From positions 7,975 through 71,974 of the forward strand of contig JBBSIZ010000006.1 of assembly GCA_038257735.1 (NCBI GenBank): 64,000 nt of DNA, in the 5' to 3' direction. Origin of the DNA: Sphingomonadales bacterium. Its GTDB lineage: Bacteria > Pseudomonadota > Alphaproteobacteria > Sphingomonadales > Sphingomonadaceae. The notes beneath the pieces were generated by a model that saw only the letters and a program-made list of their open reading frames with translations, did no database searches and was not told the DNA's origin. The translations under genes and the position numbers were made by a program. Below are positions 751 to 32,814 of this stretch, piece by piece (the stretch's first letter is position 1; each line of letters opens with the position of its first letter).

Positions 751-1446
751 CTACTTTTCCAGCGCCGCCAACCGCCGGGCATCCGCCTCCAGCCACACCA
801 AACACTCCTCCCCGCCCTCCATCTCCCAAACGAGATGATCCCCGATCAGCGAGATCTTCTCCGCCAGCGCGTCCAGGTCCGGCGCCGGGGTCTCGAGCAA
901 GGCGAGCATCGCCTCATCGGCCGCGTCGACGATCTCCCCGAACCTGTCGTCCAGCGCCTCCTGCTCCTCGAACGGCCGCCGCCCCGGCCCATAAGCCTTC
1001 GCCGAGCTCGCCTCCTGAAACCGCTCCTTCGCGAAGTCGATACGCTGGAAGCGCCTGAAAGTCTCGGCCCAGCTCCCTTCCTGCTCGATCGGAAAGGGTG
1101 GGGTAGGAATGAGCTTCGACGCCGGCCGCACGGCGTCCGGACCGGCCCTGGGCCCAACCGCCACCCCATTCCCGCCCCTCCCCATCGAGGGCAGCGAAAC
1201 GCCGACCGCGACCGCAGCGCCCAGAACCGCCCGGCGAGTGAAGGCCAAGCCGCCCGAGAGCAGCGACGTCGGCGCGAATGCGCCGCGTGAGCAGCAAGCG
1301 GAGTCGGCGCAGCGCCCGGCCGGCGGGTCGGCTCCGCCGAGCCCGTCCGACGTCACGGCGAGGCCGCCCTCGCCGCCCCTATAGGCTTCGTCGCCATCCA
1401 CAGGTAGAAGTGAAGCGCGCACGCCGCTATGCTCCCTGGAAGCCAT
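751..1446 (-). CDS. Hypothetical protein with twin-Arg-like leader (TRRAVLG) and PDLDALAEK...EADARRLA C-terminus; start uncertain
   Basis: ORF track 751..1524. The recognisable part runs from about 1240 to the stop. Paralogous to 29475..29918. Confidence 0.6.
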   Translation of the reverse strand: MASREHSGVRASLLPVDGDEAYRGGEGGLAVTSDGLGGADPPAGRCADSACCSRGAFAPTSLLSGGLAFTRRAVLGAAVAVGVSLPSMGRGGNGVAVGPRAGPDAVRPASKLIPTPPFPIEQEGSWAETFRRFQRIDFAKERFQEASSAKAYGPGRRPFEEQEALDDRFGEIVDAADEAMLALLETPAPDLDALAEKISLIGDHLVWEMEGGEECLVWLEADARRLAALEK

Positions 1447-1550
1447 GACCAAGGGTCTCCCGCCGATGGGGTTACTTCGATTTTTGCTTGTTGATTTACT
1501 GACAAAAGGGACTGCTGCGGTCAAGTGTTTTTTGTTGAAAAACTGACACT

Positions 1551-1772
1551 GTGAATCAACGCCAGTGCAGAATGGCGCGAGCGGGGCTGGATTGGACGCA
1601 GCACGATCTTGCCGATGCCTCTGGCGTCAGCTGGCGCACCGTCGCCCGTTTTGAAGGTGGCGAGTCCGTCTTGCCCGCACAGGTCCAGAAGATGCGCCAC
1701 GCTTTGGCAAGCGCTGGGATTCTTTTCATCGACACCGGAAAATTTGCCGGAGGGGTTATCCCTCCGACCTAG
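1551..1772 (+). CDS. XRE-family helix-turn-helix regulator
   Basis: QCRMARAGLDWTQHDLADASGVSWRTVARFEGG is the HTH_3 pattern of alphaproteobacterial island regulators. Confidence 0.85.
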   Translation: MNQRQCRMARAGLDWTQHDLADASGVSWRTVARFEGGESVLPAQVQKMRHALASAGILFIDTGKFAGGVIPPT

Positions 1773-1798
1773 TGGCGGATGGCCCCTATCTGGATCAA

Positions 1799-30095: not shown

Positions 30096-30302
30096 CGGAA
30101 ACCTAGGGCGGGCGCAATAGCTGAGAGTGGAAAAAATAAGGGTGGCCGGCCGAAGACAGGGATTGGCCCGGCCATCGGCTTGCGGCTTTACCCGGATTTA
30201 GAGGCTGCCCTTGATTCCTGGATTGCCCAGCAGCCCGACCCGAGGCCCTCGAGGCCGGAAGCGATACGGGCTATTTTGCGGGAGGCGTTGAAACAGGTTT
30301 AG
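30096..30302 (+). CDS. Ribbon-helix-helix/CopG-like small regulator (not in ORF track; no canonical start seen)
   Basis: Hand translation: ...KNKGGRPKTGIGPAIGLRLYPDLEAALDSWIAQQPDPRPSRPEAIRAILREALKQV*. In-frame TAG at 30093-30095. Confidence 0.6.
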   Translation, partial: RKPRAGAIAESGKNKGGRPKTGIGPAIGLRLYPDLEAALDSWIAQQPDPRPSRPEAIRAILREALKQV

Positions 30303-30442
30303 GGGGAGGGCCACTGTTGCCGCATAGGCACAGAACGCCGGAGATATTCCCCTTGGCAGGACGGGCATTCCCCCACTTGCCTTTATCGGGCAGAAACTTT
30401 AGGGGCCAACTTCAGTTCACAGCTTGTTCCGGGAGAACGTCG

Positions 30443-31690
30443 ATGGAACGTGACGGCGCGCTGTACGAACTGCACCCCAATGTTTCGCCATCGCTTGGCT
30501 CCCCCACAGCCATGGATTTATTCTCGGGGGCAGGCGGCCTTACGCTCGGCTTGCTGAATGCCGGCTTTGACGTGCGCCTTGCATCAGATTGGTCGGCGGG
30601 ATGTGCGCGGACGCATCGGCGGAATTTTCCCTCTGTGCCATTCCGTTTAGCCGACATCAGCAAGGTGGACGGAGACGAGTTACTTGCCCAAGCTGGCCTA
30701 GCCAAAGGCGAGCTGGACCTGCTTATTGGTGGACCCCCTTGCCAAGGGTTTAGCATCCTCGGCCAGCGTCTTCTTGAAGACCCCCGCAATCGGCTCTTCG
30801 GCGAGTTTATTCGCATCACTGGCGAACTGTCGCCGCGCGTTGCGGTCATCGAGAATGTGCCGGGGCTTGCCACGCTTGGTGGCGGCGTCTTGCTGCGGGA
30901 GATTGGCGAGGCGTTCGAGCAACTGGGCTACGATGTCGACTGCGCTGAGCTTCTCGCCGCGCAGTATGGCGTGCCTCAGATGCGGTGGCGGATGTTTTTC
31001 ATTGCTTGGAGACGCGACCAAGGCGTGCGGAGTGGGTTCCCCAAAACAACTCATGGCCGCCTCGGCATTGGCGACTTGGTTCCAAATCGAACGGTCACGC
31101 CGGAGCAACTGGCCGGCTTTGTGACGATCCGGGAGGCAATTTCCGACCTGCCGGTCATTCGGAGCGGGGAAGTATGCCATGCCTATTCTCGAGCTCCCGG
31201 TTGCCCCTACCAAACCGCCATGCGGCTAGGATGCACCGACGGTCTCCACAATCATTACGCTCCAAAATTATCTTCTCTCAATTTGGAAAGAATCAAGTCG
31301 CTACGGCCGGGGCAGGATTGGCGCAATCTGACCCCTGAGCTACTTCCGGAAGGCATGAAGCGGGCGCTGCGTAAAGACCACACTCGCCGGTTTCGTCGCA
31401 TGTGCTGGGACGGAGTTGCTCGGTCCATCATTACACGGTTCCGAGACCCCAAATCAGGCGAATATACCCATCCTAGCCAAGACCGAACGATCAGCATTAG
31501 AGAAGGGGCGCGTATCCAGTCGTTTCCAGACTGGTTCGCGTTCGAAGGGACTTACACTGATCAGTATGATCAAGTCGGCAACGCCGTTCCGCCTCTCCTT
31601 GCAAAAGCAGTGGGCGAGCAGATCGCACGGGCGCTGCGGGGTGAGCGAGATGGAGCGCGGGTCAAATCTCGCTACAGGATATACGCTTAA
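30443..31690 (+). CDS. DNA (cytosine-5) methyltransferase
   Basis: DLFSGAGG, GGPPCQGFS, IENVPG, QMRWR, ISIREGARIQSFP, VGNAVPP. Confidence 0.95.
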   Translation: MERDGALYELHPNVSPSLGSPTAMDLFSGAGGLTLGLLNAGFDVRLASDWSAGCARTHRRNFPSVPFRLADISKVDGDELLAQAGLAKGELDLLIGGPPCQGFSILGQRLLEDPRNRLFGEFIRITGELSPRVAVIENVPGLATLGGGVLLREIGEAFEQLGYDVDCAELLAAQYGVPQMRWRMFFIAWRRDQGVRSGFPKTTHGRLGIGDLVPNRTVTPEQLAGFVTIREAISDLPVIRSGEVCHAYSRAPGCPYQTAMRLGCTDGLHNHYAPKLSSLNLERIKSLRPGQDWRNLTPELLPEGMKRALRKDHTRRFRRMCWDGVARSIITRFRDPKSGEYTHPSQDRTISIREGARIQSFPDWFAFEGTYTDQYDQVGNAVPPLLAKAVGEQIARALRGERDGARVKSRYRIYA

Positions 31691-32814
31691 TGGTCGTAGC
31701 GAGGGCGGCGAGACCTGCACGAGGGAACTATGTCTCTGAGTGGTTCGGGCATCGGGTGTACCCTCGCGTCGTCTCGAACGAGAGGAGCGTCGAGGATCAG
31801 CGGCGCGAGCTGTGCCCGTTCCTTTCACAGGCAACCGGTGAAGAGCGGCGATGCATCAAGCCGGCCGCCTCCCTCGGAGTTTGCACAGTCAACACTCCCT
31901 GCCAAGCGGGTCGCCGGGACTGGTTAGTGTGTCCTTACCGAGCCTTCGATCCGGCGCTGCTGGACAGCGCAATCCGGCGACTATTCGGATTCTCGCCGAC
32001 TCAAGCCGCACTCGTGATGCCGGCAATTCGGCTTGCACACGCAGATGCTCGCGGCTCGACCCAGGAGACCTTGGCATCGGGCGGAAGAGTATTCGTCTAT
32101 TTCGACGCCAAAGTTGGCGGAGAACTCAGCATATCGAGAACAGCCGAATCACCGGAGTTCTCGTTTGATATCACAGTCATTGAGATTGAGCTCTGTGAAG
32201 GGGTGCCGCACGTAGGCCGCTTCGGAATCGTCGAAATTCAAACGATGGATTTTCACGGCTCATACAAGCATGCCGTAGCTAACTTGAAGGATGGACTGCG
32301 GCTGCATCCCCACACTTTTGCAGAGACGCTGAGTCAAAATCAGCAGTGGCTCTCGGAGCGGATAGAGGGACCCAATCTCTCTAACGTGTTCAAGCGTACG
32401 TTCTACCAGATGATGTTCAAGTTCCAGTTAGGGATGAGTTCGAGATGCTCTGGCTGCGTGCTGGCAGTGCCCCTTTCGGTGTGGGAAAGTTGGCAACGAC
32501 ACCTCGGTGGCCCAGTACTGACTGAGGAGGATGACGGCACGTTTAGTCTGTTTGAGCCGGGCAGAAGTCGGCCGGAGGTAGTCCCTGCCTGGATCTACGC
32601 GTTCGATCTCGACGCGACCGCTGATGTGACCCCAACTCCTGTATTGGCCCCGCTGATTATCGCCACAGACGCTGCAGCCATGTCATATTACGCGTTAGAG
32701 CTGGCTCCTACAAAGGCCCTAGCGACGATCGATGCACCTGGTGGTATGATTGCAAAGATAGGCGGGCGCCTTACCACCCTCTGGCCTGAACTCGCGCGTA
32801 CGATCGCGGTTTAA
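31690..32814 (+). CDS. NotI-family type II restriction endonuclease
   Basis: EWFGHR, four Cys (CPF, RC.K, GVCT, VCPYR), GGE...SFD, VEIQTMDFHGSY. Coupled to the MTase stop (TAATG). Confidence 0.85.
   Translation: MVVARAARPARGNYVSEWFGHRVYPRVVSNERSVEDQRRELCPFLSQATGEERRCIKPAASLGVCTVNTPCQAGRRDWLVCPYRAFDPALLDSAIRRLFGFSPTQAALVMPAIRLAHADARGSTQETLASGGRVFVYFDAKVGGELSISRTAESPEFSFDITVIEIELCEGVPHVGRFGIVEIQTMDFHGSYKHAVANLKDGLRLHPHTFAETLSQNQQWLSERIEGPNLSNVFKRTFYQMMFKFQLGMSSRCSGCVLAVPLSVWESWQRHLGGPVLTEEDDGTFSLFEPGRSRPEVVPAWIYAFDLDATADVTPTPVLAPLIIATDAAAMSYYALELAPTKALATIDAPGGMIAKIGGRLTTLWPELARTIAV

Follow-up and report, generated by a model that had tools for sequence, protein, structure and literature searches.

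A divergent RRxxL and regulator gene pair as the probable resident border of recurring accessory-gene hotspots in Sphingomonadaceae

A stretch of 64,000 nucleotides from a Sphingomonadales bacterium of the family Sphingomonadaceae (GenBank assembly GCA_038257735.1, contig JBBSIZ010000006.1, positions 7,975 to 71,974; hereafter the window) shows the same gene arrangement twice, i.e., a gene for a small protein with an arginine pair near its N-terminus, here called RRxxL, a small regulator gene transcribed away from it and, behind the regulator, a set of restriction-modification (R-M) or other defence genes. The original prediction, made from the letters of the window alone, took the two blocks as members of a family of minimal defence-carrying elements, in which RRxxL and the regulator form a conserved head and the cargo is exchangeable. 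This raises the question of whether the head travels with its cargo or stays in place as the cargo changes. We find that the conserved head and its exchangeable defence cargo hold, and that the mobile element fails. Both blocks are probably chromosomal accessory-gene hotspots of one recurring kind, present in part of one Sphingomonadaceae genus, and each would consist of a housekeeping anchor, a variable cargo of 3-4 kb with low guanine-cytosine (GC) content and the conserved pair, which is a long-lived resident at the inner border of the hotspot.

The two RRxxL proteins of the window are homologous (29% identity, E 7e-10), and they align in the parts that were originally picked out, namely the leader, the APD..A..K motif and the RRLA end. 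A profile search of 1.8 billion representative proteins returned 957 clusters at 50% identity (E <= 1e-3). The neighbourhood of the family was then tabulated at 74 loci, 60 from 24 congeneric genomes, 8 from the window genome and 6 from metagenome contigs, using only the taxon names that the sources attach to the homologues, the close ones being labelled Allosphingosinicella. A small regulator is encoded on the opposite strand, 90-350 bp upstream of RRxxL, at 68 of these loci; the remaining six are truncated RRxxL copies or contig ends. A recurrence of this order is far beyond chance, and it confirms both the conserved head and its association with regulators. Two profiles built from the window neighbours assign 23 of the 68 regulators to the XRE type and 45 to a type resembling ribbon-helix-helix proteins (RHH-like). 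In the RRxxL tree the clades follow the chromosomal anchor, and the regulator type switches 3 times, as compared with about 17 times when labels are shuffled.

Clustering of neighbour genes defined five anchor groups, i.e., acnA (12 loci) and a pair of genes of 350 and 625 codons (7 loci), both with XRE regulators, and lepA (11 loci), uvrA (8 loci) and dnaG-rpoD (4 loci), all with RHH-like regulators. In four of the five groups the 3' end of the anchor gene points to the cargo; acnA turns its 5' end to it. Within each group nearly every genome has a cargo of its own. Three relatives carry at the acnA site a Dam methylase with DndB, an N6 methylase with GmrSD_N and HEPN, and a toxin-antitoxin pair, respectively; three others carry at the lepA site an HD protein with dCTP-deaminase-like and adenylosuccinate-synthetase-like genes, a DEAD helicase, and MazEF with an AAA protein. 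The window genome's own paralogous pairs adjoin an MmeI/Eco57I-like enzyme (contig C14), PDC-S18 (contig C54) and a Gp49/HI1420 pair with a RelA/SpoT-like gene (contig C9).

Base composition sets this cargo apart from the pair. Averaged over the 68 loci, GC is 0.68 in the pair and 0.67-0.69 downstream of RRxxL, falls to 0.575-0.60 in the 3 kb directly behind the regulator and is 0.66 again at 4-5 kb, the trough lying on the regulator side only. Codon use follows the same line, being atypical upstream in 41/68, 38/67 and 37/66 of the first, second and third genes out, and downstream in 12/68, 10/68 and 9/67, respectively. The GC and codon use of the pair are thus host-like and those of the cargo are not. 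Among the top 25 Pfam families of the 165 proteins from the three genes next to the regulator were C5, D12 and MT-A70 methylases, BglII, reverse transcriptases, STAND/NACHT NTPases, AAA_21, HamA, AIPR, RES, NTase-conflict, PRTase-CE, ADDT and ADP-ribosylglycohydrolase, besides anchor genes; the cargo as a whole includes Hachiman and toxins. The downstream control (84 proteins) was made up of dehydrogenases, histidine kinases, MerR, ribosomal proteins and similar, and its top 25 families held no restriction or defence family except two antitoxin matches. Exchangeable, defence-rich cargo is therefore borne out on the regulator side.

The limits of the cargo were mapped in the window itself; the average GC of its genome is 0.66. 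At the first hotspot, RRxxL-1 (751-1446 (-), 231 amino acids) and an XRE-type helix-turn-helix (HTH) regulator (1551-1772 (+), 73 amino acids) are parted by a divergent intergenic region (1447-1550), and the anchor is acnA (5378-8062 (+), an aconitase of 894 amino acids, with Pfam Aconitase matched in the orthologous loci). RRxxL-1 orthologues are 60-85% identical, and the regulator, with its conserved GG(V/I)IPP end, is orthologous in all acnA-locus relatives. Alignment of these orthologues shows that the intergenic region is conserved too, including the 5' leader of RRxxL and its GGGAGA ribosome site. Compared by blastn with seven orthologous loci, the sequence loses similarity at 1691-1766, just ahead of the XRE stop codon (1770-1772), and regains it at 5264-5281, about 100 bp before acnA; these breakpoints place the cargo at about 1773-5270. 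It is private to the window genome, has a GC of 0.50-0.63 and comprises Vsr (1799-2203 (-); PF03852, E 1e-31), a C5 methylase (about 2386-3564 (+); PF00145, E 2.5e-38), a DUF262/GmrSD_N gene (3561-4565 (-); E 1e-19, and E 3.5e-25 to PADLOC NsnA) and a gene of 232 codons (4562-5260 (-)). The genes originally read in this block are recovered apart from the supposed nucleotidyltransferase ('NTase'), which is not confirmed, the 232-residue product having no Pfam match.

At the second hotspot the order is RRxxL-2 (29475-29918 (-), 147 amino acids, orthologues up to 74% identical), an RHH-like regulator (30117-30299 (+), 61 amino acids if read from a conserved in-frame ATA at 30117), the cargo and, with its 3' end towards the cargo, lepA (35871-37724 (-), 617 amino acids; Pfam LepA_C). 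Homology to seven orthologous loci ends at 30265-30291 (the regulator stop codon is 30297-30299) and restarts from about 33325, which places the cargo at about 30300-33325. Again private to the window genome, with a GC of 0.56-0.61, it is an R-M system of the NotI type, in which a C5 methylase (in the open reading frame (ORF) 30317-31690 (+); PF00145, E 5.6e-62) abuts at 31690 a NotI homologue (31690-32814 (+); E 1.4e-96 to PDB 3BVQ over residues 7-370), and the methylase and NotI-like nuclease read from the letters of this block are confirmed. The stretch 33325-35870 is an older part of the lepA hotspot, which holds small toxin-antitoxin genes and by blastn is partly shared with relatives (L010, L062, L090). 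Two segments, 34478-34646 and 35871-36039, are 82-89% identical to the 3' end of lepA in relatives; that end is thus duplicated around a small toxin-antitoxin islet, as would be expected after site-specific integration into that end.

Mapping of the ends thus gives a junction at the regulator stop codon and, at the first hotspot, another just before acnA; terminal repeats are absent, the two ends of either cargo sharing no word of 8 or more bases. A conserved or attachment-like sequence after the regulator stop codon was sought in all 68 loci and not found. The original observation that the window lacks an integrase extends to the whole contig, on which no tyrosine or serine recombinase was detected; in the genome, the six matches to PF00589 are all far from the pairs and the only match to PF00239, on another contig, is below threshold. 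An IS5-type gene, so named from reading its sequence, stands beside one paralogue only. Finally, no RRxxL match was found in phage (50,697 records), plasmid or IMG/VR viral-contig collections.

As to what the pair encodes, RRxxL, typically a protein of about 150 amino acids, is matched by no model of Pfam, NCBIfam, PHROG or PADLOC, and neither Foldseek nor a PDB sequence search returned a significant relative. AlphaFold predicts a short N-terminal helix, a disordered linker and a four-helix bundle with a predicted local distance difference test (pLDDT) score of about 95, which in RRxxL-2 covers residues 50-120. The arginine pair is present in 65 of 66 full copies, within the consensus S-R-R-A-L-L-G, and is followed by a hydrophobic stretch of 12-17 residues; in 46 of the 66 the start ATG lies exactly eight residues before S/T-R-R-A-L/V-L-G. 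Across a 14-member alignment R8, R9, A10, L12, W52, A107, P108, A112, K116, R144 and A146 are invariant. This N-terminus has the form of a signal peptide of the twin-arginine translocation (Tat) pathway, from which we infer that RRxxL is exported. The expected A-x-A cleavage site is obscured by repeat elements inserted right behind the hydrophobic region; in many orthologues different sequences resembling repeats or miniature inverted-repeat transposable elements are inserted in frame at two shared positions, one behind codon 7 and the other behind the hydrophobic leader, e.g., 'PRHCEERSDEAIQ..LLRSARNDG', 'EEAPPPGFARSPSPA' and 'RHPGLDPGS..WTPDQVR', and the filler of the linker is a different repeat-element sequence in different orthologues.

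Both window copies are affected. The ORF of RRxxL-1 is open to 1524, and from the family-typical start MASREHS at 1446 it runs through a repeat-derived insertion of 69 amino acids, the Tat-like leader FTRRAVLG, the linker and the four-helix C-terminal domain. In RRxxL-2 the arginine pair is six residues from a new start, MSGSGISRRALLG, and is followed by a linker with a repeat-element segment and the four-helix domain; reading of the sequence shows an inserted repeat element parting this leader from the family-typical start and ribosome site. The relic of that start (29915-30004 (-)), with its ATG at 30004 and GGAGGCGAAGG just upstream, opens an ORF of 29 codons that ends in a TGA overlapping the RRxxL-2 start codon (ATGA), an arrangement suggestive of translational coupling. 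In the leader lies a hairpin (30044-30071) with a perfect 12-bp stem (CCGGAGCAAGGC / GCCTTGCTCCGG), conserved in relatives at the lepA and uvrA sites.

As for the regulators, the XRE protein of the window scores below the Pfam cut-offs for HTH_3 (21.2 bits against 23, E 3e-4) and HTH_31 (21.9 against 27); its orthologue in L018 exceeds that for PF01381, and HTH_3 also appears in the upstream tallies. Its nearest solved relative is the R-M controller protein 4YBA, at only E 0.05. The RHH-like regulator of the window has no Pfam match and a weak one to PHROG 4738, a 'transcriptional repressor' (E 1.2e-4); the AlphaFold monomer has an extended IGLRLYP segment followed by helices at 26-37 and 46-59 (pLDDT 70), and Foldseek and PDB sequence searches gave no significant match. 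The promoter region between the divergent genes is conserved within groups, with a TTGACC box beside the regulator start. As strong GC bias at third codon positions inflates Nei-Gojobori values, only the comparison between genes is meaningful, and by it the ratio of nonsynonymous to synonymous substitution rates (dN/dS) shows the regulators (0.12-0.29; XRE 0.12) to be constrained like housekeeping genes (anchors 0.16-0.23), against 0.29-0.97 in the faster-evolving RRxxL C-terminal domain, where dN is 4-5 times that of the anchors.

A further peculiarity concerns the start of the RHH-like regulators. Of the 45, 24 have no canonical in-frame start codon, the window frame among them, and only five have an ATG beside the GRP motif; 41 have an in-frame ATA within a conserved CAATAG(C/T)C motif, which in 40 of the 41 sits exactly nine codons before GRP with a G-rich stretch resembling a ribosome site 7-9 nt upstream. 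This ATA may be a conserved AUA start. Alternatively, the motif abuts the TTGACC box on the other strand and could be under constraint at the DNA level.

RRxxL is distributed in a clustered but patchy way. The window genome has about nine copies, three of them broken and one a partial duplicate. Among 60 congeneric genomes 32 have 1-13 copies and 28 have none, and the more complete assemblies tend towards many copies or none; in other genera of the family weak matches occur in 18 of 150 genomes, four of them with a divergent neighbour of XRE or RHH type. A weakly resolved tree of rpoB fragments requires at least 4-6 gains or losses, compared with about 14 with shuffled labels. A gene for 147-173 amino acids at the RRxxL position of two family-negative genomes was checked and is not a hidden family member.

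That each block is a minimal mobile element whose head moves with exchangeable defence cargo, as first proposed, would account for the same architecture at many loci, for the patchy, many-or-none occurrence of RRxxL, for one acnA-locus copy that clusters with its own genome's copy at the lepA locus and for a dS higher in the regulator than in the anchor. We nevertheless consider it very unlikely, given that the heads, at 0.68 GC, do not share the 0.575-0.60 of the cargo, are orthologous at syntenic sites with clades that follow the anchor, have no integrase or resolvase near any copy in the window genome, adjoin cargo whose mapped ends lack repeats and are absent from the phage, plasmid and viral-contig collections; family-negative genomes, moreover, still hold low-GC DNA that varies beside acnA and lepA. 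Still less probable is that the pairs are relics of the immunity region of a prophage or satellite, a repressor with an exclusion gene, once integrated at housekeeping 3' ends, the cargo being a neighbouring moron hotspot. Both regulator types do weakly match phage repressor families, four of the five anchors present their 3' end and the lepA 3' end is duplicated, but the tallies show no phage genes beside the pairs, none of the 50,697 phage records nor IMG/VR has an RRxxL homologue and acnA faces the cargo with its 5' end. An integron, with which the loci share a fixed platform beside a variable array and possible expression of cargo from the platform, was rejected; unlike an integron, they have no integrase and no attC-like repeats at the cargo ends, and the cargo appears to consist of complete systems in mixed orientation.

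Other explanations shift the weight from the site to the genes. If the regulators were controller (C) proteins of the neighbouring R-M systems, and so part of the cargo, the distant likeness of the XRE protein to 4YBA and the shared orientation of regulator, methylase and nuclease in the second block would follow, but the same orthologous regulator adjoins cargo other than R-M in other genomes, its GC is host-like, homology extends up to its stop codon and it co-diversifies with RRxxL, which refutes the regulator as a cargo component and leaves this reading highly improbable. More serious, though we judge it unlikely, is the view that the two genes form a defence or exclusion system of their own, or else an addiction pair acting against deletion, at home in defence islands. 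In that case RRxxL would be an exported, fast-evolving effector that stops phages from entering or becomes toxic once de-repressed, with the regulator as its repressor, and the link with cargo would be the usual clustering of defence genes. Most annotated loci do neighbour defence genes, the leader is a textbook Tat-type one and the family is multi-copy and diversified; its C-terminal domain evolves 4-5 times faster than the anchors at the protein level beside a tightly constrained repressor, and one partner family is combined with two unrelated DNA-binding types, as in toxin-antitoxin modules. Against this, searches of PADLOC, PHROGs, Pfam and folds gave no match, several RRxxL copies are pseudogenes, and host-like GC and fixed positions are unlike typical mobile defence genes. 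The divergent gene order, too, is unlike toxin-antitoxin operons. The loci resemble type II toxin-antitoxin systems in joining a partner family to an RHH or XRE protein and in being multi-copy and island-associated, but such an operon was rejected, the genes being divergent rather than co-directional in all 68 loci and the partner having an export leader and no toxin-family match.

The reading as hotspots with a resident border can be set beside systems already described. Core defence hotspots, such as cDHS1 and cDHS2 of Pseudomonas aeruginosa and those of the E. coli pan-genome, are often without mobility genes. Our loci share with them fixed chromosomal sites, conserved flanks and a strain-variable, defence-rich content of lower GC, with defence systems that vary between genomes. 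They differ from them in that one flank belongs to a paralogous two-gene family found at five or more hotspots of the same genome, in that the cargo is only 3-4 kb and begins exactly at the regulator stop codon, and in that the site is without tRNA or transfer-messenger RNA (tmRNA); Rfam and tRNA scans of the window found nothing. The WYL-domain regulators BrxR/CapW and the CapH-CapP pair co-localise with diverse defence systems. Here, as there, many unrelated defence systems have next to them a small DNA-binding regulator, with or without a partner gene; unlike those regulators, the pair has no Pfam match to a WYL domain or peptidase, the partner is a four-helix protein with a Tat leader, and the pair is resident as the cargo changes.

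On the resident-border reading, relatives would swap cargo through homologous recombination within the conserved flanks. This we infer because recombinases and repeats are absent and because the same idea exists for cDHS1, for which exchange by transduction and homologous recombination has been proposed (PMC10250203). The regulator would repress the divergent RRxxL promoter, RRxxL would be exported via the Tat pathway, and transcription of the regulator may read through into co-oriented cargo and so control it. Our best guess for the role of the pair is a fast-evolving, putatively Tat-exported protein under a putative repressor. A bolder version, which we put forward as a tentative and rather doubtful one, would make the pair a previously undescribed, dedicated hotspot anchor, either an exported, quickly diversifying exclusion protein under a tight switch, perhaps a repressor whose translation starts at a conserved AUA codon, or a platform that protects from deletion, or expresses, any defence cassette behind the repressor gene. 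In either form it would be a new two-gene system, recognised by its defence-gene neighbours at about 70 loci.

Several observations weigh against the hotspot reading. Family-negative congeners carry unrelated low-GC genes right after lepA, and in one of them unrelated accessory genes also occupy the interval from acnA to the conserved gene on the far side of the pair position. Because variable DNA persists there, the pair is not needed for the hotspot, a property that belongs to the anchors, and pair and cargo may be linked by nothing more than co-residence. Of the 76 low-GC islets in the window genome only five adjoin a pair; seen from the other side, five of the nine pairs adjoin such an islet against about 9% expected by chance. 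The first cargo gene is co-oriented with the regulator in only 41 of the 68 loci, some RRxxL copies are broken, as counted above, and presence is patchy to the point that sister genomes have seven and no copies, and simple vertical descent is therefore no explanation. Being from related genomes, the loci are not independent, genes were called with a home-made codon-usage caller trained on the window genome, with a length fallback, and the Pfam tallies give only the top 25 families each, which makes the defence enrichment qualitative.

Hotspots without mobility genes are already known, and the pair border offers a concrete handle on their build-up and control, as here several hotspots of one genome are bordered on one side by a paralogous pair with a sharp cargo junction. 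A hidden Markov model of the pair would be a simple marker for small defence islets in sphingomonads, the pair is a testable candidate for a new defence-associated module, and cargo turnover could be measured in a natural setting, between defined flanks.

Some smaller observations concern the history of individual copies. In G197 the acnA-site RRxxL groups with the lepA-site copy of the same genome (support 100/95), yet has kept its XRE neighbour (L103, L075), which suggests gene conversion or replacement between paralogous pairs inside one genome. The acnA site of L110 (G178) is empty of cargo: about 280 bp part acnA from an XRE gene with a frameshift, and RRxxL has lost its leader. With the cargo gone, the pair seems to be in decay here. 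Directly 3' of RRxxL-1 in the window, Tandem Repeats Finder reports an array (240-795; period 166, 3.3 copies, 90% matches) whose unit joins the last 14 RRxxL-1 codons to a repeat-element segment, and tblastn finds the C-terminal 14 residues twice more. A longer duplicate, 58 codons of an RRxxL 3' end, is found on G000 contig C9:22109-22282, 2.2 kb away from the full copy at 24484-24933, and it adjoins another low-GC islet.

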